Assembly: GCA_963715985.1 (NCBI GenBank)
Contig: CAVQSP010000014.1
Coordinates: 640,001 to 704,000 of the forward strand
Direction of reading: 5' to 3'
DNA from: an uncultured Thermoleophilia bacterium
GTDB taxonomy: Bacteria; Actinomycetota; Thermoleophilia; UBA2241
Length of the DNA: 64,000 bases
Shown: positions 41,841-58,161 of the stretch, in pieces
How positions within the stretch are numbered: position 1 is the stretch's first letter
Layout of the letters: each line of letters starts with the position of its first letter
Position numbers and translations under genes: made by a program
Notes under the pieces: model-generated
Database searches by the model: none
The model's input: the letters and a program-made list of their open reading frames with translations, nothing else
What the model was told of the DNA's origin: nothing

Positions 41841-42109
41841 CCGACGCTGCACACACGGGGGGTGCACGTGTTCCGCCGGCTGCAGTACTGTCGTGTCCGC
41901 GGCGGTGGGATTCCGACACTGCCGTCTCCGGCCCCTATGTGCGCATCGTGCCAACGTCCTCGCACCGACGATGCCCTCCTGCACAGGACCCACTCGTCGA
42001 TGCCACGTACCGCGTCACCGGCGTGAGGTGAGGAGGTGGTGTCTCACCCGAGGTAGTTCCGCAGAGTCCGATCAGGCTTCCACAACGGTAGACCGGAAGG
42101 AGGAGCCAC

Positions 42110-43516
42110 ATGGCTGGACCTGGGACGAAAGCCCAGCGCGAGCGCATGACGGTCTTCGAGGCGTATGAGAGGGCCCGCAAGGGTCCCAAGGTGGACGAGG
42201 CGGTCTGGAACTTCGAGATCATCCCGCAGACCGCCAAGCGCCTCAAGGAGAAGTACGAGATCGAGATGGACAAGGCCGTCATGGTCCCCACCGATCCCGC
42301 GCTCATCAACAAGCTCTACAAGGCCGGTCTCGAGATGCTCGTCGAGTGCGGCGTCTACGTGATCAACACCGGCCGCGTCATCAAGTACACCGAGGAGGAG
42401 GTCCTCCTCGGCGTCGCCACCGCCCCCAAGGAGTGCATGCTCGGTGAGGGGCTCCACAGCCGGCGCATGTCCTACCGCTCCCACAAGGACACGCGCCCAC
42501 CGCTCGTCCAGGGTGGCCCCACCGGCGCCCCCTGCAGCGAGCAGTACTTCTTCCCGATCCACGAGTCCTACGTCAAGGAGGGCATCGTCGACTGCATCGT
42601 CGACGGCGTGCTCTCCACCGTGAACGGCTACAACCCCGCCCCCGACACCCCCTGGGAGGTCCTCGCCGGCCGCCAGGAGATCATGATGGTGCGCATGGCG
42701 CAGGCCAAGTGCGGCCGCGCGGGCATGGGCTTGTAGGGCCCCGAGACCACGCTGAACGCAGCCGCCACGATCTCGCAGGACTTCCCCGGCGGCATGCGGA
42801 CCACGGACAACCACGAGGTCTCGCAGCTGAATGAGTTGAAGACCGACCTAGGCGCGTTGCTCTTCACCTCTCATTACAATCTCTCTGCAGACACCGTGAT
42901 GGTCGAGCAGATGCCGATCTTCGGCGGCTTCGCCGGTGGTCTCGAGGAGACGACCATCGTCAACGTCGCGACGCATCTCAACTCGTTCGTCACGTTCGGC
43001 GGCACCTGGCATCTCGACGGTCCTGTGCACATGCGGTGGGGCATCACGACGACCAGGGAGGCCCTGGCCATCGCGGGTCACGCCATCATGGCGGTCAACT
43101 CCGTCTGGCCGCTCCTCAGCGGCAACCAGTACTACACGATGGCCGGCCCCTGCACGGTCATGTGCCTCCTGGAGACCGCCGCGCAGGCGATCACCGACAC
43201 CGCCAGCGGCCGCGAGATCATGAGCGGCGTGGCCGCCGCCAAGGGCGTCATCACCGACAAGACCACGGGCATGGAGGCGCGCTTCATGGGCGAGTGCGCG
43301 CACGCCGTCGCCGGCCTGCCCACGGAGCAGACCAACGAGATCCTCGACGCGCTGGTGAAGATGTACGAGGGCGACTACAAGACCGCCGACCAAGGCAAGT
43401 TCTTCCCCGAGTGCTACGACGTCGAGAAGGTCGTCCCGACCGACGAGTACCTCGAGGTCTACGACAAGGCCTGTGCGGCGATGAAGAGCCTGGGCGTCAA
43501 CTACAAGCTCTGGTGA
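42110..43516 (+). CDS. mtmB: monomethylamine:corrinoid methyltransferase, pyrrolysine at codon 209 (TAG 42734-42736), 468 aa
   Basis: ORFs 42110-42736 and 42794-43516 are in frame; read-through gives GRAGMGL-O-GPETTL, matching MtmB GRPGMGV-O-GPETSL. Confidence 0.95.
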
Positions 43517-43564
43517 GCGGCACCCGGTCAGCGAACACGCCGAGTTTGAGGAGGCTCTAGGCAA

Positions 43565-44212
43565 ATGGGAGAAGCTGAGTTCATCAAAGAAGCGATCGAC
43601 GCGCTGTTGACCAGCGACAAAGAGAAGGCCGTGGACGTCGCCAACCGCGCCATCGCCGCCGGCGTGGCGCCGGACAAGCTGATGGCGGACGGCTTCGTGG
43701 TCGGCATCCGCCAGCTCGGCGACAAGTTCGACGAGGGCGAGGTCTACCTGCCCGAGCTGATGCTCGCGGCGGCGGCCATGGAAGCCGCCATGGCCATCTG
43801 CAACGCGGCCCTGCCGGAGGGCAAGAGCGAGACCCGCGGCGTCGTCGTCATCGGCACCGTCGAGGGCGACGTGCACGACATCGGCAAGGCCATCGTCTGC
43901 GCCTACCTGCGCGCCAACGGCTACGAGGTCCACGACCTCGGCCGCGACGTGCCCGTGGAGGAGTTCGTCGACAAGGCCGAGGCGGTCGACGCCGACGTCA
44001 TCGGCGCCAGCGCCCTGCTCACCGCCACGATGCGCAAGCAGTCGGAGATCGTCGCCGAGCTCAAGGACCGCGGTCTCCGCGACAAGTACAAGTTCGTCGT
44101 CGGCGGCGCCCCCTGCACGCAGGAGTACGCCGACTCCATCGAGGCCGACGCCTACGCGGCCGACGCCAGCGACGGCGTCAAGAAGATCGAGGAGCTGCTG
44201 GGCGCGAAGTAA
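43565..44212 (+). CDS. mtmC: monomethylamine corrinoid protein
   Basis: YLPELM, GTVEGDVHDIGK (DxHxxG), SALLT and GGAP motifs; directly follows mtmB. Confidence 0.9.
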   Translation: MGEAEFIKEAIDALLTSDKEKAVDVANRAIAAGVAPDKLMADGFVVGIRQLGDKFDEGEVYLPELMLAAAAMEAAMAICNAALPEGKSETRGVVVIGTVEGDVHDIGKAIVCAYLRANGYEVHDLGRDVPVEEFVDKAEAVDADVIGASALLTATMRKQSEIVAELKDRGLRDKYKFVVGGAPCTQEYADSIEADAYAADASDGVKKIEELLGAK

Positions 44213-44250
44213 GTCGCCGCGCGCCCGGCAGGCCTGCCACACCTGCCGAC

Positions 44251-44287
44251 GGAGGGCGGCGCCCGCGGGAGCGGGCGCCGCCCTTCC
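44251..44287 (+). terminator. GC-rich hairpin after mtmC copy 1, without a T-tract
   Basis: AGGGCGGCGCCCGC-GGGA-GCGGGCGCCGCCCT, followed by TCCCGATTC. Confidence 0.5.
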
Positions 44288-44415
44288 CGATTCAGGAGAC
44301 ATTGTGCTGAGAGTCACGTTCACAGAGGCACCTGGGGCGGCGAGCCCGTCGCCCAAACTCGGGGAGGTAGCCGAATGACGAGAGTTTCGGTCAAGCGCAA
44401 TGGAAGGAGGTCGTT

Positions 44416-44775
44416 TTGAGCACTCCTGATGTCGACTCGATAGTCGAACAAGCACTCGAGGCTGAAGTACACGGCGGCAAGCACGACCCGCGCATCGACA
44501 GGCTCTACCGGCAGGACGTCATCACCATCTACATCTTCGTCGTGGCGTTGTGGCTCGTGCTGTGGACGGTCTTCTTCTTGGTCGCCAACCCGGTCATCAC
44601 CGACGACAAACTGCGGTGGCTCCTGATCGGCCTCGGCGTCTTCGCCTCGATCTTCAACAGCGTCGGCATGATCTCCAACACGCGGAGGCTCAAGCACGAG
44701 GCTGTGCGCTTCTACTCCCAGGATCTGTTCTGGCAGGACGAGAAGAAGCGTCGTAAGGCGGAGGGGCTCCTGTGA
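44416..44775 (+). CDS. small membrane protein (2 TM)
   Basis: AAGGAGG RBS, TTG start, two hydrophobic helices, host-like codon usage. Confidence 0.8.
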   Translation: MSTPDVDSIVEQALEAEVHGGKHDPRIDRLYRQDVITIYIFVVALWLVLWTVFFLVANPVITDDKLRWLLIGLGVFASIFNSVGMISNTRRLKHEAVRFYSQDLFWQDEKKRRKAEGLL

Positions 44776-44805
44776 GCGCGTTGCGATCCCGAAAGGAGGC
44801 TCCCG

Positions 44806-45006
44806 TTGGCTGACCAAGAGAACGAGCAGCACATCATCGGCCGGCACGTGGCCGCGAGTGAAGAGGAGTGGGTCGCCTACAAGGACTACAAGGCGCCCAC
44901 GCAGAGCAGGCTCTGGCAGATCATCGACGTGCTCTTCGTGATCATCCTCTGCTACGTCTGCCTGCTGATCCCGATCCTGCTCACCGGCAAGATGATCGTG
45001 GGGTGA
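44806..45006 (+). CDS. small membrane protein (C-terminal TM)
   Basis: AAGGAGG RBS; IIDVLFVIILCYVCLLIPILL. Confidence 0.75.
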   Translation: MADQENEQHIIGRHVAASEEEWVAYKDYKAPTQSRLWQIIDVLFVIILCYVCLLIPILLTGKMIVG

Positions 45007-45009
45007 CAG

Positions 45010-45351
45010 ATGAGACGACTGACTCTCACCCGGCTCGGTCCGGGACACAAGGCTCGTCGCGCCCTCGCACTCTTCACCCTCGTGGCTCTCTGCGTCACGC
45101 TGGTGCTGACGTGCGCAGGCGCATCTCTTGCCGCCGACGAAGGCCGGACGATCAACACGCCCGGAGGGGCGACGATCACGACGTCCGAGGGCATGGAGGC
45201 GCCGCAGCTCGACTACAAGTTCGTCTGGTGGAGCTTCATCCTCACGTTCGGGCTGCTCATCGTGTACTACGTGTGGATACTCCGCATCTCGGACAAGGAG
45301 TTCAAGAAGATCATCGACGCCCACTTCGGGCCCAAGCAGGACGGGAGGTGA
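45010..45351 (+). CDS. small membrane protein (signal-like N-terminus plus TM)
   Basis: Hydrophobic N-terminal helix; FVWWSFILTFGLLIVYYVWIL. Confidence 0.75.
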   Translation: MRRLTLTRLGPGHKARRALALFTLVALCVTLVLTCAGASLAADEGRTINTPGGATITTSEGMEAPQLDYKFVWWSFILTFGLLIVYYVWILRISDKEFKKIIDAHFGPKQDGR

Positions 45352-45356
45352 CGGGC

Positions 45357-45551
45357 ATGGCATGGGTGAACTACGTCACGTGGGCTATCGCCATCCTGCT
45401 GCTAGTGTGGCTCGTCATCGACGCCTTCCGCATCGAGACCACCTACGACGCCGAGCTTCTCGTCAGCTCCGTGGAGGGTGAGATCGAGAAGGAGATCCTC
45501 GACCACGACGAGCTCGCCCACCTCAAGGACCAGTCGAGAGGGGGCATGTGA
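45357..45551 (+). CDS. small membrane protein, 64 aa
   Basis: GGAGG RBS; MAWVNYVTWAIAILLLVWLVID; stop overlaps the permease ATG (TGATG). Confidence 0.75.
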   Translation: MAWVNYVTWAIAILLLVWLVIDAFRIETTYDAELLVSSVEGEIEKEILDHDELAHLKDQSRGGM

Positions 45552-46972
45552 TGGCGACAGACGCCGCAGCCGTGAGCGCTCAAGCCACGGCGGACGCCCC
45601 CAAACGCCTGAGCCTCCTGCGCGTCCTCGGCCCCATGCACGTGTGGGCTCTGGGCGTGGGGATCGTGCTCGTGGGCGAGTTCATGGGCTGGAACTTCACC
45701 GTGGCCAAGGGAGGCGTGTTCGGTGGCCTCGTGGCATGCTGGTTCTCCGGCATCCTCTACTCGTGCGTCGCCATGATCGACTCCGAAGTGAGCTCCACCG
45801 TGGCGTCGGCAGGCGGGCAGTACGCGCAGGCCAAGCACATCCTCGGCCCCCTTGCGGCCTTCAACATCGCCCTGTTCATCATCTTCGAGTACTGCATGCT
45901 CTCGGCCGGCGACGCGCTTGTCATCGGAGCGCTGGTCAACAGCCTCAACCCGGTGCTCAGTCCGACGCCCTTCGTGGTGCTCACCATCGCCTTCCTGGCG
46001 TGGCTGAACTACCGGGGAGTGCACACCACGCTGACGTTCAACTTCATCATCACGGCCATCGCGTTCATCACGATCCTCGTGCTGATCGTCGGCGCCCGGT
46101 TCTGGGATCCCGGCTACATCACGCAGACCAAGGAGCTGTTCGCGCAGCCTCCGGGGAGCGCTGATCCCAAGATGCCCTACGGCTGGCTCGGCATCCTCGC
46201 CGCGCTCCAGTTCGGCATCTGGTACTACCTCGGCATCGAGGGCACGTGCCAGACGGCGGAAGAATGCCGCTCGGCACCGCGGGCGCTGCCGGTGGGCACG
46301 ATGTCCGGCCTCATCACCCTGCTGATCGCCGCCACGCTCACGTGGTACATCTGCACCGCCCTCGTCAACTGGATCACCCTGGGCTCGTCTGTGTACCCGC
46401 TCTACGACGCGGCGGTCAACACCGGCAAGGACTGGTTGATGGTCACCCTGTGGATCGGCTCGCTGCTGAGCTGTCTGGCGTCGTCCAACGGGTGCATCAA
46501 CGACGCCTCGCGAGCGTGGTTCGCGATGGGGCGCGACCAGTTCATCCCGAGGTGGTTCGGCGGCGTCCACCCCCGCTACAAGACGCCGTACCGCGCCATC
46601 CTGTTCCTCGTGCCGATCATGATCGCCTTCGGCTACACCGGGCTGCTCGACCAGGTCATCACCTTCTCGATCATCTCCGGCTGCCTCATCTACTTCATCA
46701 TGCCGCTCAACATGATCCGCTTCCGTCGGCTCTACCCGATGGACTCGATCAAGCGAGGGTACGTGTCACCGTTCCATCCGCTGCCGTCGTACGTGCTGTT
46801 CCTGTTCGTGCTCCTCACGTTCCTCGCCATGTACTTCGGCTACTGGCGCAACCTCGTGGCGGCGCTGGTCTTCTACGGCATCTGTTCGATCTGGTTCGTG
46901 CTGCACCGGTACAAGTTCGTCGACCGCACCAAGCTGTACACGATGCCGTGGCCACGGCCTAAGGGCTACTGA
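45551..46972 (+). CDS. APC family permease (ethanolamine-permease-like), candidate methylamine transporter
   Basis: VWALGVGIVLVGEFMGWN, GIEG..AEE, SRAWFAMGRD and HPRYKTPY motifs; about 12 TM. Confidence 0.88.
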   Translation: MATDAAAVSAQATADAPKRLSLLRVLGPMHVWALGVGIVLVGEFMGWNFTVAKGGVFGGLVACWFSGILYSCVAMIDSEVSSTVASAGGQYAQAKHILGPLAAFNIALFIIFEYCMLSAGDALVIGALVNSLNPVLSPTPFVVLTIAFLAWLNYRGVHTTLTFNFIITAIAFITILVLIVGARFWDPGYITQTKELFAQPPGSADPKMPYGWLGILAALQFGIWYYLGIEGTCQTAEECRSAPRALPVGTMSGLITLLIAATLTWYICTALVNWITLGSSVYPLYDAAVNTGKDWLMVTLWIGSLLSCLASSNGCINDASRAWFAMGRDQFIPRWFGGVHPRYKTPYRAILFLVPIMIAFGYTGLLDQVITFSIISGCLIYFIMPLNMIRFRRLYPMDSIKRGYVSPFHPLPSYVLFLFVLLTFLAMYFGYWRNLVAALVFYGICSIWFVLHRYKFVDRTKLYTMPWPRPKGY

Positions 46973-46989
46973 CAGGAGAGGAGGACGTC

Positions 46990-47433
46990 GTGTTCGAGAC
47001 TCTGCTGGTAGCCACCGACGGCTCCAAGGCGGCTCAGAAGGCCGTCGTCTGGGCGGTCGAGTTCGCCAAGCGACACGACTCCCGGCTCATCATCTGCAAC
47101 GTGACGCCGGAAGCGCGGACGAAGCTCAGGCGCACCGAGCCCAACCCGCCGCCGGAGGGCGATGTCTCGCCCGAGGACGCCGGCGACATCGTCTCCGCCG
47201 AGGCCTTGCATAGGGCGGAGAGGCTGGCGAAGAAGGCAGGGGTGAAGTACGAGCTCGATGAGGTGTACGGCAGGAACATCGCGGCTACCATCGCCAAGGA
47301 GGCGATGGCGGTCGGCGCCGACCACATCATCATCGGGTCGACCGGGATCACCGCGCTCACCACGTGCGTGCTCGGCTCGGTCGCACAGAACGTGGTCCAC
47401 TACGCCCACTGTCCCGTGACGGTGGTCCGGTAG
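46990..47433 (+). CDS. universal stress protein
   Basis: LLVATDGS, IIIGSTG and LGSVAQNVVHYAHCPVTVVR motifs. Confidence 0.92.
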   Translation: MFETLLVATDGSKAAQKAVVWAVEFAKRHDSRLIICNVTPEARTKLRRTEPNPPPEGDVSPEDAGDIVSAEALHRAERLAKKAGVKYELDEVYGRNIAATIAKEAMAVGADHIIIGSTGITALTTCVLGSVAQNVVHYAHCPVTVVR

Positions 47434-47479
47434 ATGAACATCCGGGGCCGCAGCCGCGGCGGAGGGAGGTGACGGCGTC

Positions 47480-48148
47480 ATGGACACTGGACTCGCCGTC
47501 AGACTGGCCATCGTCGTGGCTGCGGCCCTGCTGCTGACCTACGTCTTCCTCGCCTACGTGCGGCGAGACCGCAAGAAGACCCAGCACATGCTCGACCCGT
47601 TCCTCAACGCTATCGACCACCCGCAGGTCGGACGCAGCCCTTGGGGCTACGAGTTCCTCGAGGGGTCGTTCGGCGGGCGCCCGGTGCGGGTGAGCCTGAT
47701 CCCGGACTCGCTGATCACCCGCACGTTGCCGACGCTCTGGCTGGAGGTGCGCTGGGCGCGGCCCAGCGATGCCTTCCTGTGCGTCATCACGCTGTGCAAC
47801 GGCATGGAGTACTTCGCCGACGAGGTCGACGAGGGCAGCCTGCTCGTCACGCCCAGCACGTGGCCCCAGTCTGTGCGGGTGCGCGGCAAGGGCCCGGCAA
47901 GCTCGGCCCTGGCGCGTCGTCTGAACGGCTTCGATGTCGACGCGTACAAAGACCTCAAGATGGTCTCGCTCAGCGAGACCGAGACCAAGGTGATCATGCG
48001 CTGTGCCCGTGGGGACTTGCAGCTCTACAGGGTGTTGCGCTCCGCGAGTTTCCCTGAGGATTCGGTGAAGCCGGAGCTGGTGGAAGAGACCGTCCGGGTA
48101 CTCCGTGACATCGACCGCATGCTCGAGAGCGAAGAGGAGGTCGCGTGA
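47480..48148 (+). CDS. hypothetical membrane-anchored protein
   Basis: GGAGG RBS, N-terminal TM, in operon arrangement with its neighbours. Confidence 0.75.
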   Translation: MDTGLAVRLAIVVAAALLLTYVFLAYVRRDRKKTQHMLDPFLNAIDHPQVGRSPWGYEFLEGSFGGRPVRVSLIPDSLITRTLPTLWLEVRWARPSDAFLCVITLCNGMEYFADEVDEGSLLVTPSTWPQSVRVRGKGPASSALARRLNGFDVDAYKDLKMVSLSETETKVIMRCARGDLQLYRVLRSASFPEDSVKPELVEETVRVLRDIDRMLESEEEVA

Positions 48149-48693
48149 TGGGCAGGACCCGCAGCGCCAAGCCGCAGAAGGAGGCGCCGAAGGGCGAGCT
48201 CAAGAAGCCGCGCCCGGTATGGTTCGTCACCCTCATGGCGTTCGTGCTGCCCGGCAGCGGGCAGATGTTCAACGGTGCGCCGGCGCGCGGCATCATCATG
48301 CAGTTCGGCATGGTCTTCGGCGGCTACGTCTCCTACCAGCTGACCACGCCCGAGATCTCGCCCATCGGCCGGCTCGCCGGCGGCCTGCTGGTCTGGGTCT
48401 TCTCCATCGTCGACGCCAACGGCATCGCCAACCGGCGCGTCAGGGCGTGGGCCCGCATCGAGGCGGCACAAGCCGGGAAGCCGTCGCAGAACACCGGGAG
48501 TCCGGCTCCGAGCCGGCGTGCCAAGAACGGAACGTCGGGCAAAGCCCCCAAGGGCGCCGCCCGCAAGAGGCGCGTCGACAGCGCCGCTCCACGCGGGGCC
48601 GTGGTCGCCGGCGCGGACATGGGACCCGCCTCGATCACACCCATGCCCGGGGGCGGGACCTCCGCGGCGGTAGCGGCTTCAGAGCCTCACTGA
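48145..48693 (+). CDS. hypothetical membrane protein
   Basis: AFVLPGSGQMFNG...LLVWVFSIVDA; overlaps the previous stop codon. Confidence 0.7.
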   Translation: MMGRTRSAKPQKEAPKGELKKPRPVWFVTLMAFVLPGSGQMFNGAPARGIIMQFGMVFGGYVSYQLTTPEISPIGRLAGGLLVWVFSIVDANGIANRRVRAWARIEAAQAGKPSQNTGSPAPSRRAKNGTSGKAPKGAARKRRVDSAAPRGAVVAGADMGPASITPMPGGGTSAAVAASEPH

Positions 48694-48762
48694 GGCCGCT
48701 CGCGGCCAACGTGAAGCGCGAGGCGCCCGATCGTCGACCGTGACCGGTAGGGTCCCCGCCGC

Positions 48763-49098
48763 TCACGCGAAGATGCGGCGCCCGAAGATCACCACCACGA
48801 CGCCGACCATGGTGATGGCCGCACCGATGAAGTCGTAGCGGTCGGGGGTGTTTCCGTCGATCGCCCAGCCCCACACCATCGCCCCGACGAGGAAGACACC
48901 TGCGTAGGCCGCGTACACGCGCCCGTACGCCCCCTCCGGCTGATACGTCTGGATGATGGCGTAGAAGAGCAGGGCGGCCAGGCCGACCAGAGCGAGAAAC
49001 GCCGTCCCGCCGCCCTTGAGCCAGCGCCAAAAAGCGTAGGTCCCTCCCAACTCACCGAGGGCGGCAAGGATGTAGATCGCGAAGGTCTTGACGATCAC
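48763..49098 (-). CDS. YnfA/UPF0060 family small membrane protein
   Basis: AALGELGGTY, YGRVYAAYAGVF and PDRYDFIG motifs. Confidence 0.88.
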   Translation of the reverse strand: MIVKTFAIYILAALGELGGTYAFWRWLKGGGTAFLALVGLAALLFYAIIQTYQPEGAYGRVYAAYAGVFLVGAMVWGWAIDGNTPDRYDFIGAAITMVGVVVVIFGRRIFA

Positions 49099-50054
49099 GG
49101 CGTCACCTCTCAGATGCGTGCGGGGTGGTCACATCCCCGGTGGGACGTGGTGGGACGGCTGCTTCTGGGCCGCGACCGTTCGACTGGTCGCACGATGCGT
49201 GGAGCGCGGCGCCTCTCCGTTGTCGCGGCACTCCTCAGAGACGGTCCTCCTCACGGCACCTGCGTCCCGCCGATGACCCGGCTGGGCCGGCGTCGTCAGC
49301 GTAGTGGCTGGAGAGGCGAACCTCAATCGCCGCCCGGACTGCGCGCCGAGCGGCGCCGGCTGTGCCGCCCTCAGGCGACCGACCCAGGCACTCACCGGTC
49401 CTTCGCCCGAGGTGGAGTTCAGCCCTCAGCCCTCTGCACACCCTCCTGTCTTCTGCCGGGATGGTCCCGGAGGCATCGCCGTGGCCTGGTGCCGAAGGGA
49501 GGATGACTGCTGACGGAGGCGCGATGCACATCCGCGAGAGGCGATCAGGCCAACTGCGGACGAGCGCGTATGCGAGTTGACCGCCCGGAAACCGGTCGAG
49601 ACGGTGCGGGAGCGGCGCGCCTCTCTGCGGGAACGCGACGTCGACGCCATCGTGCGGCCGGCGGGGAGCCGTTGTTGGGGCACACACGTAGCGGGGCGGG
49701 GCTCGATGCACCGAGACGGACTGGGCGCGCCAGGGCGTCCGCGGTGACGAGACCGTGTTGACGATGGAGACCGAAGAAGATGCCACGACGAAGCCGGCTG
49801 AGCTGGAGTCCGCCGGTAAGCATCACGTGCGGATCGGGAGGACCGGTGGAGCCGCGGCGAACTGGCCGATGTGACGCACGGCCACACGATCGCCGCCTGA
49901 CCGGACGGCGCCCCGTGGGGGCGCCATCCGCCTGAGAACCGCGCCATCTCGGCGGGCCGGGGCGTCGTTGGGCATGCGCTCCGGGCCAGGATGTGGCGCC
50001 TTTTCCGAGGGCGGCCGCAGAGAGCATCCGCGCCCCTGTACAAGCGGGAAGCAC

Positions 50055-50085
50055 TTGACCGGCGGCGTGGGACAACGCGTATACT
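50055..50085 (+). promoter_or_regulatory. possible sigma70-type promoter for mtmB copy 2
   Basis: TTGACC-N19-TATACT; spacing is longer than ideal. Confidence 0.4.
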
Positions 50086-50409
50086 CGTGCTCCACCGGCA
50101 CAGCGTCTTCCCGCCGGCGCGCGATGTCCTCGCCGAGCGGCGCACAAGGAGGCGCGACCCTGGTTCGTAGGCGCAGCACTGGTCCTGGGGCTTCGGACCG
50201 ATCCAGTCGGCCGGGGAGATGTGTCCCGGGCCGCCCGATGCGCGCCCGCACCGGCAGTAGCCCGACGGTGGCCCGCGTCACCGTCGCCGTCCATTCCGCA
50301 CACCATGGTCCCTTCGCGGACCAGGCTGGCCAGGAGGTGATGCCTTCCGTCCGATAGTCGGGATGCACGTCGCCAACCTAGACAAGCTAGGCACGAGAGG
50401 AGGAGCCAC

Positions 50410-51816
50410 ATGGCTGGACCTGGGACGAAAGCCCAGCGCGAGCGCATGACGGTCTTCGAGGCGTATGAGAGGGCCCGCAAGGGTCCCAAGGTGGACGAGG
50501 CGGTCTGGAACTTCGAGATCATCCCGCAGACCGCCAAGCGCCTCAAGGAGAAGTACGAGATCGAGATGGACAAGGCCGTCATGGTCCCCACCGATCCCGC
50601 GCTCATGAACAAGCTCTACAAGGCCGGTCTCGAGATGCTCGTCGAGTGCGGCGTCTACGTGATCAACACCGGCCGCGTCATCAAGTACACGGAGGAGGAG
50701 GTCCTCCTCGGCGTCGCCACCGCCCCCAAGGAGTGCATGATCGGTGAGGGGCTGCACGGCCGGCGCATGTCCTACCGCTCCCACAAGGACACGCGTCCAC
50801 CGCTCGTCCAGGGCGGCCCCACCGGGGCTCCCTGCAGCGAGCAGTACTTCTTCCCGATCCACGAGTCCTACGCCAAGGAGGGCATCGTCGACTGCATCGT
50901 CGACGGCGTGCTCTCCACCGTGAACGGCTACAACCCCGCCCCCGACACCCCCTGGGAGGTCCTCGCCGGCCGCCAGGAGATCATGATGGTGCGCATGGCG
51001 CAGGCCAAGTGCGGCCGCGCGGGCATGGGCTTGTAGGGCCCCGAGACCACGCTGAACGCAGCCGCCACGATCTCGCAGGACTTCCCCGGCGGCATGCGGA
51101 CCACGGACAACCACGAGGTCTCGCAGCTGAATGAGTTGAAGACCGACCTAGGCGCGTTGCTCTTCACCTCTCATTACAATCTCTCTGCAGACACCGTGAT
51201 GGTCGAGCAGATGCCGATCTTCGGCGGCTTCGCCGGTGGTCTCGAGGAGACGACCATCGTCAACGTCGCGACGCATCTCAACTCGTTCGTCACGTTCGGC
51301 GGCACCTGGCATCTCGACGGTCCTGTGCACATGCGGTGGGGCATCACGACGACCAGGGAGGCCCTGGCCATCGCGGGTCACGCCATCATGGCGGTCAACT
51401 CCGTCTGGCCGCTCCTCAGCGGCAACCAGTACTACACGATGGCCGGCCCCTGCACGGTCATGTGCCTCCTGGAGACCGCCGCGCAGGCGATCACCGACAC
51501 CGCCAGCGGCCGCGAGATCATGAGCGGCGTGGCCGCCGCCAAGGGCGTCATCACCGACAAGACCACGGGCATGGAGGCGCGCTTCATGGGCGAGTGCGCG
51601 CACGCCGTCGCCGGCATGCCCACGGAGCAGACCAACGAGATCCTCGACGCGCTGGTGAAGATGTACGAGGGCGACTACAAGACCGCCGACCAAGGCAAGT
51701 TCTTCCCCGAGTGCTACGACGTCGAGAAGGTCGTCCCGACCGACGAGTACCTCGAGGTCTACGACAAGGCCTGTGCGGCGATGAAGAGCCTGGGCGTCAA
51801 CTACAAGCTCTGGTGA
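50410..51816 (+). CDS. mtmB: monomethylamine:corrinoid methyltransferase copy 2, pyrrolysine at TAG 51034-51036
   Basis: Same in-frame amber and GMGL-O-GPET motif as copy 1; five amino-acid differences seen. Confidence 0.95.
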
Positions 51817-51864
51817 GCGGCACCCGGTCAGCGAACACGCCGAGTTTGAGGAGGCTCTAGGCAA

Positions 51865-52512
51865 ATGGGAGAAGCTGAGTTCATCAAAGAAGCGATCGAC
51901 GCGCTGTTGACCAGCGACAAAGAGAAGGCCGTGGACGTCGCCAACCGCGCCATCGCCGCCGGCGTGGCGCCGGACAAGCTGATGGCGGACGGCTTCGTGG
52001 TCGGCATCCGCCAGCTCGGCGACAAGTTCGACGAGGGCGAGGTCTACCTGCCCGAGCTGATGCTCGCGGCGGCGGCCATGGAAGCCGCCATGGCCATCTG
52101 CAACGCGGCCCTGCCGGAGGGCAAGAGCGAGACCCGCGGCGTCGTCGTCATCGGCACCGTCGAGGGCGACGTGCACGACATCGGCAAGGCCATCGTCTGC
52201 GCCTACCTGCGCGCCAACGGCTACGAGGTCCACGACCTCGGCCGCGACGTGCCCGTGGAGGAGTTCGTCGACAAGGCCGAGGCGGTCGACGCCGACATCA
52301 TCGGCGCCAGCGCCCTGCTCACCGCCACGATGCGCAAGCAGTCGGAGATCGTCGCCGAGCTCAAGGACCGCGGTCTCCGCGACAAGTACAAGTTCGTCGT
52401 CGGCGGCGCCCCCTGCACGCAGGAGTACGCCGACTCCATCGAGGCCGACGCCTACGCGGCCGACGCCAGCGACGGCGTCAAGAAGATCGAGGAGCTGCTG
52501 GGCGCGAAGTAA
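51865..52512 (+). CDS. mtmC: monomethylamine corrinoid protein copy 2
   Basis: DVHDIGK B12-binding motif; one V>I difference from copy 1. Confidence 0.9.
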   Translation: MGEAEFIKEAIDALLTSDKEKAVDVANRAIAAGVAPDKLMADGFVVGIRQLGDKFDEGEVYLPELMLAAAAMEAAMAICNAALPEGKSETRGVVVIGTVEGDVHDIGKAIVCAYLRANGYEVHDLGRDVPVEEFVDKAEAVDADIIGASALLTATMRKQSEIVAELKDRGLRDKYKFVVGGAPCTQEYADSIEADAYAADASDGVKKIEELLGAK

Positions 52513-52550
52513 GTCGCCGCGCGCCCGGCAGGCCTGCCACACCTGCCGAC

Positions 52551-52593
52551 GGAGGGCGGCGCCCGCGGGAGCGGGCGCCGCCCTCCTCTTTCT
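52551..52593 (+). terminator. intrinsic terminator after mtmC copy 2
   Basis: GGAGGGCGGCGCCCGC-GGGA-GCGGGCGCCGCCCTCC followed by TCTTTCT. Confidence 0.7.
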
Positions 52594-52697
52594 GGACACA
52601 TTCCTGCGGGCCCGAGGTGCGGGACGGTCGTGCGGTGGGTACCGTAACCTGTACGCGGCCTCAGCGAGCCCGATCGACCCCGAGTGGAAGGACACGA

Positions 52698-52907
52698 ATG
52701 GCGGTGATCCTGTATTCGCGGCCCGACTGCCCCTACTGCGATGCCGCGCGTCGCTACCTGGACGACCGTGGTGATCCCTACGAGGAGCGCGACATCACCG
52801 TGGACCCAGAGGCAGAGCAGGCCGTGGCGGCCATCACCGGCGGCCCGCTGACCGTACCGATCACCGTGGAGGACGGCGACGTGAGGGTCGGCTTTCCGTA
52901 CACCTGA
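52698..52907 (+). CDS. glutaredoxin-like protein
   Basis: LYSRPDCPYC, TVP and VGF motifs; GGAAGGA RBS. Confidence 0.88.
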   Translation: MAVILYSRPDCPYCDAARRYLDDRGDPYEERDITVDPEAEQAVAAITGGPLTVPITVEDGDVRVGFPYT

Positions 52908-53101
52908 GGCGGGGCGCGAGGGCGCACGCGCTGGATCTTCCAGCACGACCCCGAGCGCAGGCGCGCGTGACGCGCCACCATCCTCCGGCAATCGGCGCCG
53001 CCCATGTTCCGGAATGGCAAAAGAGATGTCGGTATGTGCGCCAGATTGGCGCATATGGAGCCTGCACCGTGACGATTCGTGAACTTCTGCACGTGCAAAC
53101 C

Positions 53102-53130
53102 TTGACTGGGCCAGCGTGCATCCATACATT
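53102..53130 (+). promoter_or_regulatory. sigma70-type promoter upstream of mtbB
   Basis: TTGACT-N17-TACATT. Confidence 0.65.
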
Positions 53131-53398
53131 GTGTCGCACACGTGAAGCCCGCAATGCCCGTACGGAGTACTTGCGGGCTTCGTGAGCGAACTAGGCCAAT
53201 GACTCCGAACGCCGGCAGCCGTATCCCGCCGTCGGCAGAGGGAGGCCCGTCCTGTGACGGCGCAGCACGCGATGCGATCCATCGAGCTGGTCTGGTCTGT
53301 GGGGGCGCTCACGCCCCAGCTGAGCCGCGCCGCCGCGCGCCCCCCGCCCGCCACTACCCTGTCTCCGCGCTTTCTCACCACAATGGAGGTGTGACGCA

Positions 53399-54800
53399 GT
53401 GAGCAAGATCTGGACCCGAATGGGTGACGGCAACGCCGTCGAGCTGACCCCAGACGAACTCCGCCAAGACATCATCGCGGCGACTGAAGACGCCGCGGAC
53501 AAGGGACACATCCCGGCCCTTGAAGAGAACGAGATCGACCACCTGTACGACCTGTTCGCGGCACCGTACCGCATCATCGGCGTCGAGCCCGGCCACGAAG
53601 TGCCGCTGACCAAGGACGAAACGGCGTGCACCCTCGTCTCCTCGCAGCTGTCGAGTGGTTCACACCTGGCGATAAGCCGCGAAGACGCGGTCGAAGTCTT
53701 CGAGCGCGTCTTCGCGTTCGACACTATGGAACTGGGCTGGATCGATTACTCGTTCAAGCCGGCGAAGCCCATGGTCTCGTTGGACCAGGTCTCCATCGAA
53801 CGCATCATGGCGACCACCGTGTTCCCGGTGCTCTACGGCGCCATGCCGAATATGGGCCTGTACTACACGCCCGACGGCCCGTACATCAACCCTGCAGACC
53901 TGCTCGGCATGATGAAGGTCGAGGAGGCGCGCGAGGAGGAGATGAAGGCCTCCGAGCTGTGCATGGAGGACATGATCTTCGTCTGCGAGCGCATGAACGA
54001 GATCGGCGCCGACGGCATCGACTTCGACACCACGGCCTCGGCCGGGTGACGCCGACTTCCTCGCGACCCTCAAGACGGTCGAGCACCTGAAGAAGACCAC
54101 CGACCTCGGCATCGAGATGGGCATGTCGGGCGAGTTCATCCTCGGCATGCACGGCGAGGTCGAGTACAACGGCACGCGACTTGCGGGCCTCTTCCCGCAC
54201 CAGCAGCTCAAGTGCGCGGAACAGGCAGGCGTCGACATCTTCGGCCCCGTGGTCAACACGAAGACCAACAAGTCCTGCGCTTGGAACGTGGCCCGCGCTG
54301 TGACCTTCGTCAAGGAGGTCTGCAAGCAGGCCACCATCCCGATCCACGCGAACGTGGGTATGGGTGTGGGCGGCACGCCGATGTTCGAGACGCCGCCGAT
54401 CGACGCTCTCAGTCGCGCGAGCGTGGCCATGGTCGAGATCGCCAAGGTCGACGGCTTGTAGGTCGGCGTGGGCGATCCCTACGGCATGTCCGTAATGCAT
54501 TCGATCGCATCCGGAATGGGTGGCATCCGCACCGCTGGAGACCTGGTGGCAAGGATGGAGCTCAATTACCGGATGAGGCTCCCCGAGGCGAAGAAGTACG
54601 TGGCCGACAAGCTCGGCATCAGCGCGTTCGACCTGTCGGACTCCACGGTCATGCGCAACCTGCGCGAGGAGCTCGACATCGGCGTCATCGAGGCGATCCC
54701 CGGCCTCTCCAAGGGGTACACCGCCAAGGCGCGTATCGCCGACCTTCTCGACATCAAGATCAACGGTGTCGAGCGGCAGAAGGCGAAGATGCCGGCCTGA
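53399..54800 (+). CDS. mtbB: dimethylamine:corrinoid methyltransferase, pyrrolysine at TAG 54459-54461; +1 frameshift at GGG 54044-54046 (probable sequencing error)
   Basis: RMGDG and [16 protein letters not shown] motifs; [12 protein letters not shown] restored by deleting one G; VDGL-O-VGVGDP matches MtbB VDGI-O-IGVGDP; repaired length about 466 aa. Confidence 0.93.
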
Positions 54801-54857
54801 TGACGCGCTCTGTCGTCCAGCAGGTTTGGCCAAATCTGACCCACGGAGGTCACAGGC

Positions 54858-55502
54858 ATGGCAAATGAAGACTTCTATGCGGACGCGGCTGCCGCTATCC
54901 GCGCGTGCGACGCCGACAAGGCGGCTCAGGTAGCGACGGACGCCCTTGCGGCCGGCGTGGCGCCTGACGACATGCTGAAGCTGGGGTTCATCCCGGGCAT
55001 CAGCAAGATGGGCGATCTCTTCGAGCGCGGCGAGGTGTTCCTCCCCGAGCTCGTCCTCGCAGCCAACGCCATGACGGCGGCCGCCGCGGTGTGCAACGCG
55101 GCTCTCCCCGAGGGCGAAGCGGAGGCGAAGGCCACCGTCGTTATCGGCACCGTCCAGGGTGACGTGCACGATATCGGCAAGACCATCGTCGTCGCCTTCC
55201 TGAGGGCGAACGGCTACGACGTGTACGACCTCGGCCGTGACATCTCGAGCGACAAGTTCATCGCTGCCGCCGAGGAGCGCAAGGCCACGGTCATCGGCAT
55301 GAGCGCTCTGCTCACCACCACCATGCGCGAGCAGACGCGCATCATCGAGGCCCTCAAGGCCGCGGGTCTGCGCGACAAGTACAAGGTCATCGTCGGCGGC
55401 GGCGCCTGCACGCAGCAGTGGGCCGACAAGATCGGCGCGGACGCCTACGCCGAAGACGCCAACGACGGCGTGCGCAAGGTCAACGAGCTGACGGGCAACT
55501 GA
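54858..55502 (+). CDS. mtbC: dimethylamine corrinoid protein
   Basis: FLPELV, GTVQGDVHDIGK and SALLTTT motifs; follows mtbB. Confidence 0.88.
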   Translation: MANEDFYADAAAAIRACDADKAAQVATDALAAGVAPDDMLKLGFIPGISKMGDLFERGEVFLPELVLAANAMTAAAAVCNAALPEGEAEAKATVVIGTVQGDVHDIGKTIVVAFLRANGYDVYDLGRDISSDKFIAAAEERKATVIGMSALLTTTMREQTRIIEALKAAGLRDKYKVIVGGGACTQQWADKIGADAYAEDANDGVRKVNELTGN

Positions 55503-55527
55503 TCCCGCGCTCGTAGAAGAGCACACC

Positions 55528-55583
55528 GGCGGCGCGGCCGGGCCTGCGAGAGCAGCCCCGGCCGCGCCGCCTCCCTCGTTCTG
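55528..55583 (+). terminator. hairpin downstream of mtbC
   Basis: GGCGGCGCGGCCGGG...CCCGGCCGCGCCGCC followed by a pyrimidine-rich run. Confidence 0.5.
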
Positions 55584-55644
55584 GGGCATTCCGTTCTGCG
55601 CGACCACTCCGATCGCCAACAGAGCCGCCAGTCCGCCTCGTCGA

Positions 55645-55872
55645 CCGGCCGAAACGGGGCAGCGGGCTGCCAACCCGGGGAGCGGACGGGGAGGCCGGCT
55701 CACACGGCGTTCACAGCCCTCTGAGGGGCCTGGAGAGGGCCGGAGGTGGGGAGAGGGCCGGCCGAAACGGGGCAGCGGGCTGCCAACCCGGGGAGCGGAC
55801 GGGGAGGCCGGCTCACACGGCGTTCACAGCCCTCTGAGGGGCCTGGAGAGGGCCGGGAGGTGGGGGAGAGGC
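55645..55872. repeat. 113-bp tandem duplication in the mtbC/mttC convergent gap
   Basis: CCGGCCGAAACGGGGCAGCGGGCTGCC... starts at 55645 and again at 55758; near-identical apart from G-run lengths. Confidence 0.92.
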
Positions 55873-55924
55873 CCCCTTTGGGCCTCGAGACCCCATAACG
55901 GCTCGGTGACGCTCGCAACCAAGA

Positions 55925-55959
55925 GGGCGCCCCGGCCGCGTGGAGCGGCCGGGGCGCCC
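55925..55959 (-). terminator. hairpin downstream of mttC
   Basis: GGGCGCCCCGGCCGC-GTGGA-GCGGCCGGGGCGCCC, followed on the minus strand by TCTTGGTT. Confidence 0.55.
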
Positions 55960-56010
55960 ATCTGCTTCAGGCGCTCATTGCCCGGGCGAGAGTCGCCCGA
56001 TGGAACGGGC

Positions 56011-56637
56011 TCAGCCCATGAGCTCCTTGCACTTCTCGACGCCGAGCGAGGCGTTGGCGCCGTAGGCGTCCGCGCCCACTTCGGCGGCCCACTCGGCCGA
56101 GACCGGGGCGCCGCCGATGATGACCTTGATCTTGTCGCGCAGGCCGGCGTCCTTGAGCGCCTGGATCGTCTCCGGCATCTTGGGGATCGTCGTCGTGAGC
56201 AGGCCGCTCATCCCGAGGATGTCGGCGTCGTGCTCCTTGCAGGCGGCGACGAGGTCGGCAGGGGTGATGCCCTTGCCGAGGTTGATGACCTCGAAGCCGG
56301 CGCCGGACAGCAGCATCGCGACGAGGTTCTTGCCGATGTCGTGCATGTCGCCCTCGACGGTGCCGATGACGACCGTGCCGAGGCTGCCGCCGCCCTCACC
56401 GAGGAGCGGCTTGATGATGTCGAGGCAGGCCTGCATGGTGCGGGCGCTGAGCAGCACCTCGGGGATGAACTTGTCGCCGCTCTTCATCTGCTCGCCGACC
56501 ACGTCCATGCCGGGGAGCAGGGCGTTGTCGAGGATCTCGCGGGCCGCGGCACCGCCGTCGACCAGCGACTGGGTCGCGGCCGTGGCGGCGTCGTTGCCGT
56601 CGATGATCATCTGCTTGAGGGACTCAAAGTCTGCCAT
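56011..56637 (-). CDS. mttC: trimethylamine corrinoid protein
   Basis: FIPEVL, GTVEGDMHDIGKN, SGLLTTT and GGAP motifs; directly downstream of mttB. Confidence 0.85.
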   Translation of the reverse strand: MADFESLKQMIIDGNDAATAATQSLVDGGAAAREILDNALLPGMDVVGEQMKSGDKFIPEVLLSARTMQACLDIIKPLLGEGGGSLGTVVIGTVEGDMHDIGKNLVAMLLSGAGFEVINLGKGITPADLVAACKEHDADILGMSGLLTTTIPKMPETIQALKDAGLRDKIKVIIGGAPVSAEWAAEVGADAYGANASLGVEKCKELMG

Positions 56638-56685
56638 AGGATCCTATGTCCTCCATGTCGTGGCTTCGTTCCGGAGCCCTGGGAT

Positions 56686-58161
56686 TCAGGCGACTCCCGC
56701 GTCCTTCTCGGATTTTACGACGATGGCCCTGATTTCGGCCACGACGTCACTCGGCAGCTCGGCCACCTTGTGGCCGGCCACCAGCTCCTTGGCCTTCTCG
56801 TTGCAGCGGGAGTACATGTCGGTGCTGCCGTCCATCTCCCACTCTTCGCGGACGCGACGGTCGATGTTGCCCGCCTTGGACTGGTGCTCACGCATCAGCT
56901 TCAGGGTGCTCATCCTCGAGAGGAAGTCCTCCTCGGACCCCACTTCGATGATCTCATCCACCATCAGCGTCGCGTCGTTCGTGGGGATGCCACGAAGGAT
57001 GAACTTACAGATTCGCGCGATATCGTTGTCCATGACGAGCGTGGCGTAGTCGATGGTGACGCCCGACTCGATCATCCCGGCTCCGTAGATCAGGTTGAGC
57101 CCTCCCAACGCTGGCAGGAGGCCGGTGATGGTCTTCTCGTGGGCGCACTGCGCGTCGCCGCCGAGCTTGGAATCGCTCTACAACCCGGCGCCGTAGGTCG
57201 GCAGGCCGTAGAAGCGGCCCATCTCTGCGACGGCGGCGCTGATCATGCCGAGCTCGGGGGTGCCGACGGTCGCCGCGGCGCGCTGCAGGTCGAAGGCGGT
57301 GGTGGAGGTGCCGTAGACGCACTTGGCGCCCTTCTCGGCGAGCTGCGCGAGGACGATGCCGCCGAGCACCTCGGCGTTGTGCGTGACCATGGTGCCGGCC
57401 AGGGTGACCGGGGCCGAGCCGCCGGACATGGCCATGGAGAGCGGCATGGCGATCTGATGGGCGCGAGCCGCCTCGATGATGCAGCCGCTGAACTCGCCCA
57501 TGAGCTTGAGCGGGCTGACCGGGCAGCTGAGGAAGAGGAGCATCGGGCGGTCGGCCAGCTTGTCGTGACCGCCGGCCACGGCGGCCGTGGCGTCGATGTG
57601 CAGGCGGGCGCCGTGGTGACCGAGCGCGAGGCTGCAGATCGGCTTCGTGGTGTTGAGCAGCGACTGCTCGATGAGGTGCGCCTCGGCGACCTCCGGCGGC
57701 ACGTCGGTGGCCGTCACGGCGATGGTGTAGACCTCGATATCGTCGAGCGCGTCGACGAGGCGGGCGAGGTCGGCGACGTCCTTCTTCGTGGTCGGGCGCA
57801 GCTTGCCGTCCCACGGATCCACGGCCTTGACGCCCTCGGCGAAGTTGGTGAAGGCGACGCGCCGGCCCTCCATGACGAGGTCCTTGTCCGGCGTACGGCC
57901 GCAGAGCGTGACCGTGGAAGGCGCCCAGCTGATGCACTCCTCGAGGACGTGCGACGGGATCCTCACCTTGCGCGTCGAGCGGTCGACCTTGCAGCCGCCG
58001 TCGGCGAACAGGTCGATCGCCTCGTCGTCCTCCACCCAGAGGCCGGCCGTCTCGAGCACCTCGACGGTGCCCCAGTGGATGGCCTGCCTCTCGTCTTCGG
58101 AGAAGACATCGATGCCGATGCCTCCCTGGTGGTTGATGCCTGACCGTTGACTTCGAATCAT
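56686..58161 (-). CDS. mttB: trimethylamine:corrinoid methyltransferase, pyrrolysine at codon 328 (TAG 57180-57178), 491 aa
   Basis: ORFs 57178-58161 and 56686-57108 are in frame; read-through gives YGAGL-O-SDSK..DAQCAHEKT..LLPAL.G.NLIYGAGM, the MttB Pyl motif; also SAPVTLAGT..HNAEVL. Confidence 0.94.

Follow-up and report, generated by a model that had tools for sequence, protein, structure and literature searches.

A synonymous codon bias preceding the pyrrolysine UAG of methylamine methyltransferase genes

Pyrrolysine codons of the window and its host

We analyzed a 64,000-nucleotide stretch of DNA from an uncultured Thermoleophilia bacterium (hereafter the window), in which positions 42,110–58,161 hold four methylamine methyltransferase genes: two copies of mtmB, one mtbB and one mttB (Table 1). 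Each carries an in-frame TAG at a conserved active-site position, as is characteristic of pyrrolysine (Pyl) methyltransferases. With the TAG read as a residue, the window mtmB and mttB open reading frames (ORFs) yield full-length matches to the Pfam families MtmB and MTTB, and Dimeth_Pyl is matched as well; downstream of each lies a B12-binding corrinoid protein. A reading of the window made from its letters alone (the sequence-only reading) had pointed out that all four Pyl codons share the context GGS-TTG-TAG-R (S, G or C; R, purine), and the sites are as it described, with GGC TTG TAG G at 42728-42737, 51028-51037 and 54453-54462 and GGG TTG TAG A at 57186-57177 on the minus strand. Here we follow the codon immediately before the Pyl TAG (codon −1) across genomes and describe in these soil and wetland bacteria a synonymous codon bias which, on comparative evidence, we regard as the natural 5′ context of Pyl codons, a stop-codon context signal; the known pyrrolysine insertion sequences (PYLIS) lie downstream.

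The mtmB gene and its corrinoid-protein gene form a pair that is present twice, 8.3 kb apart (42092-44212 and 50341-52512), with proteins ~99% identical and the same sequence shown around both Pyl sites. Because the pair is duplicated near-identically, the two mtmB Pyl sites count as one independent observation. The window mtbB lies in two frames that break at 54040-54050 (ggccgggTGAc), where there is one extra base at 54042-54047. Public contigs from two DNA and two RNA runs (4/4) lack one base at this place, which argues for an assembly indel in an intact gene and led us to reject both a programmed frameshift and a pseudogene. Wetland metagenomes contain near-identical mtbB (window 53400-54800) in at least 14 runs, which match 78-82% of the words sampled; metatranscriptome runs reach up to 47%, and one RNA contig spans the mtbB TTG-TAG (54377-54524) without any difference. 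The gene is apparently widespread in wetlands and transcribed, allowing for possible carry-over of DNA into the RNA libraries.

Table 1. Pyrrolysine genes, their corrinoid-protein partners and PYLIS matches in the window
Feature	Position	Strand	Match	Pyl codon and context
mtmB copy 1 (monomethylamine methyltransferase)	42110..43516	+	PF05369, 664 bits	TAG 42734-42736; −1 TTG 42731-42733; −2 GGC; +4 G
PYLIS_1-like element of mtmB copy 1	42734..42833	+	RF01982, 53.8 bits, under the gathering score of 70	begins at UAG
Cognate corrinoid protein of mtmB copy 1	43565..44212	+	B12-binding domains	
mtmB copy 2	50410..51816	+	protein 99% identical to copy 1	TAG 51034-51036; TTG 51031-51033
PYLIS_1-like element of mtmB copy 2	51034..51133	+	53.8 bits, under gathering	
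Corrinoid protein of mtmB copy 2	51865..52512	+		
mtbB (dimethylamine methyltransferase)	53399..54800	+	PF09505 Dimeth_Pyl, 376 and 242 bits in two pieces	TAG 54459-54461; TTG 54456-54458
PYLIS_2 of mtbB	54459..54558	+	RF02509, 79.4 bits, gathering 36	begins at UAG
Corrinoid protein adjoining mtbB	54858..55502	+		
mttB (trimethylamine methyltransferase family)	56686..58161	−	PF06253 MTTB, 291 bits	TAG 57180-57178; TTG 57183-57181; GGG 57186-57184; +4 A 57177
PYLIS_3 of mttB	57078..57180	−	RF02510, 49.8 bits, gathering 38	begins at UAG

The host genome is a Thermoleophilia metagenome-assembled genome (MAG) of 4.35 Mb in 22 contigs at 70% guanine-plus-cytosine (GC). It has the complement of a Pyl-decoding organism: tRNA-Pyl(CUA) (contig C13, 555126-555198), PylC (318 bits), PylD (200 bits) and the C-terminal domain of PylS (316.5 bits), each above its cut-off, together with pylB. 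The last of these (C13:551949-552972) matches its model in two overlapping frames (model positions 5-252 and 240-347; 303.8 and 125.8 bits, each under the whole-protein cut-off); the probable cause is another indel error like that in mtbB, a warning on frameshifts in the assembly. A selenocysteine tRNA (tRNA-Sec) and the gene for release factor 1 (RF1) are also present. Among 2945 ORFs called with a crude home-made method based on GC at third codon positions (GC3), 2230 end in TGA, 606 in TAG (20%) and 109 in TAA. Because RF1 and the full pyl cassette occur together and a fifth of the ORFs end in TAG, there is real competition at UAG in this organism. A motif scan with TAG read through recovered 23 Pyl-type methyltransferase genes (2 mtmB, 11 mtbB and 10 mttB). 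Beside them stand ~45 non-Pyl paralogues of the MttB superfamily, a very large complement.

Codon −1 in the host, its relatives and other phyla

TTG is indeed the rare Leu codon that the sequence-only reading took it for, accounting for 2278 of ~76,100 Leu codons (3.0%) in the host ORFs, against 47% for CTC and 45% for CTG; TTA makes up 0.06%. Ahead of Pyl, TTG serves for Leu in 17 of 17 cases. Across the 23 host Pyl sites, codon −1 is TTG at 17, CAG at 2, GCG at 2, TTC at 1 and ATG at 1, and is never CTN (N, any base). Codon −2 is Gly (GGN) and the base after the TAG (+4) is a purine at all 23. The statement that all Pyl codons follow TTG therefore holds in the window (4/4) and fails genome-wide, where 6 of 23 sites have CAG, GCG, ATG or TTC instead. 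The better-fitting rule is that a Leu preceding Pyl is encoded by TTR. This is no obligatory signal of the kind represented by the selenocysteine insertion sequence (SECIS), since TTR is absent at 6 of the 23 host sites and at 90 of 615 mtbB sites of the host's family.

At genuine gene ends TTG-TAG is rare, with 3 credible cases in ~585; its frequency there had been named beforehand as a check on the idea. Twenty TAG-ended host ORFs have TTG at −1: 14 at Pyl sites, 3 in a doubtful tandem-repeat frame and 3 at apparently ordinary gene ends. The doubtful frame comes from a 660-bp tandem repeat of at least three units (contig C15, 105800-108100) whose GC3 is very high in a frame with three TAGs in every unit. 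This frame, probably the shadow of a repeat protein encoded on the opposite strand, gave rise to false TTG-TAG stops. For the window itself, the sequence-only reading had listed seven true TAG stops, preceded by GCC, AAG, GAC, CGG or CTC and followed in five cases by C. This list was checked in part: the crude caller returned six non-Pyl TAG-ended ORFs with AAG, GAC, CTC, AGC, GAC and CGG at −1; +4 is C in three and A in three.

TTG-TAG was rejected as a means of discovering further Pyl gene families. The pattern GGS-TTG-TAG-R picks out 38 host sites, of which 17 are the TTG-type Pyl sites, all in mtmB, mtbB or mttB. A host scan gave no convincing new split gene among 115 in-frame TAGs with two-sided coding signal; the other 21 GGS-TTG-TAG-R sites were not viewed singly.

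We surveyed the host's family with pattern searches left open at codon −1 in 89 genomes, for which a reversed control pattern gave 0 or 1 matches; counts quoted below for the matches listed (150 of 615 mtbB and 150 of 349 mttB) were tallied by eye. The 615 mtbB motif sites, about 7 copies per genome, have TTR in 525, CTN in 10 (7 CTG, 3 CTC) and other codons in 80; the 150 matches listed include 18 TAC and 1 TTC. At the 349 mttB sites CTN does not occur, and the Ala codons GCC, GCA and GCT total 7. Among the 150 mttB matches listed, codon −1 is GCG in 83, TTG in 58, TTA in 3, ATG in 2, CAG in 2, GGG in 1 and GGC in 1; Ala at −1 in the family's mttB is thus nearly always GCG. The 14 mtmB sites, in 13 genomes, comprise 13 TTG and 1 TTA, again with no CTN. 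CTC or CTG in orthologues of relatives would have spoken against the rule, and such codons turn up at 10 of 615 mtbB sites and at none of the 349 mttB or 14 mtmB sites. CTN before Pyl is tolerated though rare, and the family-wide counts put the pattern well outside what chance would give.

Of 35 genomes sampled per family, Dimeth_Pyl (PF09505) occurs in 33 from the host's family and in 5 from a second Thermoleophilia family, f4. The latter (62-66% GC) uses TTA at −1 in mtbB (5 loci) and in mtmB. TTA likewise recurs in unrelated Pyl genes of genus g18 (genomes G217, G219, G220, G223 and G174). This TTG-to-TTA shift across unrelated genes of a lineage suggests co-evolution with a trans-acting component.

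The bias extends beyond the class. In a collection of species representatives, 80 mtbB loci had TTG (70) or TTA (10) at −1, some of them on contigs of ~50% GC from Bacillota and Desulfobacterales. Metagenome contigs, scanned without bias at −1, gave at least 83 matches at 80 or more loci; 5 of those listed were judged spurious by their peptide. The 78 real mtbB sites among the matches listed have TTG (61), TTA (5), CTG (4), ATA (4), CTT, GTA, TAC and TTC (1 each). The ATA sites are the archaeal-type mtbB genes (DGIOIG; O, Pyl), where ATA stands at −1 in 4 of 4 contigs as against 14 of 101 other Ile codons, among matches that are few and related; one DGVOVG mtbB among those listed has GTA. The sequence-only reading saw convergence in the use of Leu by three unrelated families. 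That is not borne out, as Leu at mtbB −1 is common to Actinomycetota, Bacillota and Desulfobacterota contigs and looks old, and mttB −1 varies.

Synonymous codon use around the pyrrolysine codon

The evidence for selection comes chiefly from mtbB. Starting from 95 high-GC mtbB genes, we aligned the 90 unique ones by codon and scored each column for unusual synonymous codon use; column −1 ranks first of the whole gene, with 78 TTG, 11 TTA and 1 TTC. The 17 other Leu-dominated columns consist of CTC and CTG, with TTR at no more than ~10% in any, and the synonymous sites flanking codon −1 vary freely. On a FastTree phylogeny of 95 sequences, built with codons −2 to +1 left out, the −1 codon switched between TTA and TTG at least 6 times and to CTN not once. 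A G-to-A change in this codon goes against the pull toward GC in these genomes; TTA-using genomes have 0-6 TTA among ~400-550 Leu codons (at most about 1%) in coding sequence sampled at random. No other synonymous site of mtbB is as constrained as codon −1.

The preference also holds across classes of base composition. Among the metagenome matches listed, Leu at mtbB −1 is TTR in 20 of 23 genes from contigs under 50% GC, 27 of 29 at 50-59% and 19 of 19 at 60% or more. For other Leu codons of the same set, TTR falls from 32% to 21% to 4% across these classes.

Controls outside Pyl sites behave differently. Leu codons preceding the sense codons TAC and TAT are TTG in 2.3% of cases (n=1282), and Ala codons preceding TA- are GCG in 29%; a general junction bias before TA-starting codons was rejected, as neither TTG nor GCG is in excess there. 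At true TAG stops, Leu is CTG in 30, CTC in 18 and TTG in 6 cases and Ala is GCG in 35 and GCC in 22, compared with the 98% and 96% reached at Pyl sites. In the ~45 non-Pyl MttB-superfamily and the MtmB-like host paralogues, the position aligned to −1 has CTC or CTG for Leu (5/5) and GCC for Ala (6/6), at 25-35% identity and with a register that may slip. Codon −1 is thus non-random in a way specific to the recoded stop and beyond what protein sequence or base composition would give. Taken together, these comparisons show Pyl-specific purifying synonymous selection on codon −1 in three unrelated methyltransferase families and several phyla.

Codon −2 is atypical as well. Its Gly is GGG in 66 of the 90 mtbB genes and GGT in 19 of 27 mttB genes, the latter nearly always with GCG at −1, whereas GGC accounts for ~68% of Gly in the mttB set. 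The E-site codon, too, is under selection, weaker than that on codon −1.

Downstream, the rare codons of mtbB at +20 to +40 (window ~54520-54580) have a known source. GGA at codon +26 (90/90) forms the second-ranked atypical column, with GAT (74/90) beside it at +27; the Arg codons +31 and +40 are AGG. Codons +26 and +27 fall in the PYLIS_2 hairpin loop, and we rejected codons +26 to +40 as a new element because they are part of PYLIS_2. A counterpart in mttB, at +23 to +25 (GCG TTG GCA), lies inside the PYLIS_3 match span. Codon −1 falls outside all three PYLIS models, whose position 1 is the U of UAG, and the bias is for that reason not assigned to PYLIS. In the portion of Have et al. (2013; PMC3639795) available to us, PYLIS is treated within 100 nt downstream of the codon. 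Like PYLIS, the −1 codon is a cis feature located at the Pyl codon in mtmB, mtbB and mttB mRNAs, and both show up through conservation at synonymous positions. The two differ in that PYLIS is an RNA structure covering 100 nt downstream, whereas for the −1 codon, which with codon −2 lies outside the models, no pairing partner was found.

How the codon before pyrrolysine might act

We propose that the selected −1 codon shifts the competition between Pyl-tRNA and RF1 toward Pyl. With the Pyl UAG in the A site, the P site would hold Leu as UUG or UUA, read by tRNA-Leu(CAA) or tRNA-Leu(UAA), rather than as CUN; Ala as GCG rather than GCC; and Ile, in archaeal-type mtbB, as AUA. This codon, the purine at +4 and the downstream PYLIS may together make up the local context of Pyl codons, in which the identity of the P-site tRNA or the mRNA bases −3 to −1 could tilt Pyl-tRNA(CUA) against RF1 in favor of Pyl insertion. 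Mechanism and direction are what we infer from codon use, and since the favored codons share no single obvious property we put the probability of this reading at about 0.5. The sequence-only reading had suggested that the P-site codon or local context helps to tell Pyl-UAG from stop-UAG. Its core has gained from the synonymous selection seen at Pyl UAG in three families and many genomes, and its emphasis on TTG has not, that codon being neither universal (GCG, TAC, CAG, ATG, TTC and rare CTG or CTC also occur) nor sufficient.

A P-site effect has precedents in nonsense suppression. According to the sections seen of one review (PMC13517186), upstream bases to −3 and properties of the P-site tRNA affect stop-codon suppression, with which our reading and the +4 purine agree. 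Such context effects in bacteria, including the 3′ purine rule for amber suppressors, resemble the Pyl case in pairing a +4 purine and a particular P-site codon with a suppressor-like tRNA that competes with RF1. They differ in having been measured with laboratory suppressors and reporters, whereas the Pyl signature is natural and known from comparative genomics alone. The original papers on codon context in bacterial suppression and termination are reportedly those of Bossi, Miller and Isaksson.

Several observations weigh against the proposed action of codon −1. No simple property unites the favored codons, since CUG ends in G and, like UUG, is read by a tRNA with C at position 34, and is still avoided. 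The rule is not universal: TAC (18 among the 150 mtbB matches listed), TTC, CAG, ATG, GGG and GGC also precede Pyl, and 8 of the 10 CTN-type mtbB genes were retrieved, all 8 with long open frames. Nor is TTG-TAG-R sufficient, as ordinary ORFs close with TTG-TAG in at least 3 cases, in 2 of which a purine follows. TTG is not avoided at true TAG stops either, where it makes up 6 of 55 Leu codons, 3 of these in the doubtful frame. The choice between TTA and TTG is not explained by tRNA gene content. As for a tRNA-level effect, standard wobble lets one tRNA-Gly read both GGU and GGC, so the use of GGU in place of GGC at −2 of Ala-type mttB would point to the mRNA rather than to tRNA identity. Finally, the sources are MAGs, and genomes of one family and their paralogues are not independent samples.

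A more specific form of the proposal is possible, if distinctly tentative: the P-site tRNA itself (a UUR-reading tRNA-Leu, or an isoacceptor on NNR) may directly lower RF1 action or raise acceptance of the unusually shaped tRNA-Pyl, together with the +4 purine and PYLIS, and tRNA-Leu(UAA) may be retained largely for Pyl sites. Its gene (C11:413807-413895 in the host) is kept in 11 of 11 genomes viewed, at a TTA frequency of 45 in 767,626 sampled host codons (~0.06 per 1000). Certain lineages use TTA conspicuously at their Pyl −1 sites. Genes for both tRNA-Leu(CAA) and tRNA-Leu(UAA) were present in 10 of 10 genomes tested, five of them TTA users and five TTG users. We therefore rejected a loss of tRNA-Leu(CAA) in TTA-using lineages; MAG incompleteness is immaterial here, as every gene was found.

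Less probable is a kinetic account, in which the rare codons (UUR at −1, GGG or GGU at −2) slow the ribosome directly ahead of the UAG, or a scarce supply of tRNA-Leu(UAA) gates expression. The retention of tRNA-Leu(UAA) in those 11 genomes despite near-absent TTA, the atypical codon −2 and the joint use of TTA by several unrelated Pyl genes of a lineage all fit it. Yet GCG, TAC, CAG and ATG, which also occupy −1, are not rare codons, and TTG is common (16-19% of Leu) in contigs of 40-59% GC and still stands at ~90% at −1. Gating by a scarce tRNA, moreover, needs no contact between codon and UAG. A known parallel is bldA of Streptomyces, where a rare tRNA-Leu(UAA) ties the expression of TTA genes to its supply. 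There, too, a high-GC actinobacterium retains this tRNA for a near-unused codon concentrated in special genes. At Pyl sites, by contrast, the codon is mostly TTG and always adjoins UAG, and there is no sign of regulated tRNA supply.

An RNA structure is unlikely to be the cause. On that view codon −1, in full or through its U at −3, would pair elsewhere in the mRNA, with PYLIS reaching upstream of UAG. RNAalifold on 81 diverse mtbB sequences does propose a small hairpin, GGGUUGU with GCGAUCC at +13 to +19, and the strong synonymous constraint in PYLIS_2, with its invariant GGA at +26, lends the idea some weight. We rejected this hairpin, because TTA sequences retain GGC at the +4 codon and so create an A-C mismatch, and because covariation is lacking: no mtbB column within 180 nt covaries with the A or G at base −1. 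GGC at −2, too, is often combined with GAT or GAC at +5, stem 1 of PYLIS_2 as modelled in Rfam already uses the proposed partner bases, and mtmB and mttB obey the TTR rule as well despite their different downstream sequences.

Still harder to sustain is a sequence bias unrelated to Pyl, for example one in which CTAG is avoided or certain dinucleotides are preferred where codons meet. CTAG is depleted in the host genome (824 observed against ~3774 expected; ratio 0.22), and the base before the stop is G in 61% of true TAG ends compared with 32% at TGA. Such a bias could account in part for the preference of GCG to GCC and for the rarity of CTC. As a full explanation CTAG avoidance was rejected: it cannot separate TTG from CTG, either of which places GTAG at the junction; the 18 Tyr codons at −1 among the matches listed are all TAC, so that C before TAG is tolerated; and the Leu and Ala codons at true TAG stops are far from the Pyl-site values. 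A junction preference is opposed by the lack of any TTG or GCG excess ahead of TAC and TAT. Historical inertia, with an ancestral TTG simply inherited by paralogues and orthologues, draws on the shared Leu of mtbB across phyla and on the kinship of sequences within one genome family, but is very improbable given that the 17 other conserved Leu columns turned over to CTC or CTG, flanking synonymous sites vary freely, the −1 codon has undergone at least 6 third-base changes in the face of GC pressure and non-Pyl paralogues use CTN.

The preferred reading, a −1 codon that biases the ribosome toward Pyl, has further relatives among recoding signals. The programmed +1 frameshift of prfB occurs at CUU UGA C, and viral leaky stops include CAA UAG CAA UUA; in both, the P-site codon beside the stop is part of the signal. 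Pyl differs from them as an in-frame 22nd amino acid inserted by a dedicated tRNA, involving neither a frameshift nor near-cognate read-through.

Published accounts leave room for such a cue. According to the parts consulted of a 2025 PNAS paper (PMC12626013), targeted Pyl insertion has no known mechanism in any organism and codon context "might be important"; local codon context figures merely as a possibility in what was available of PMC13663744, and the accessible text of PMC11467909 brings up sequence context where amber suppression is engineered in mammalian cells. Our literature search, which covered partial texts with supplementary tables outside its reach, found no description of a codon bias preceding Pyl UAG, and absence from print is not proven by it.

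The −1 codon is a candidate cue for how Pyl organisms handle UAG as both stop and sense. The −1 rule could improve the prediction of Pyl genes in high-GC metagenomes and may serve as a practical context rule for genetic code expansion. If the P-site tRNA is indeed what is read, the ambiguity of UAG would be resolved partly in cis, by tRNA-tRNA or tRNA-release factor coupling on the ribosome, and the rule would be transferable to better amber suppression with PylRS and tRNA-Pyl.

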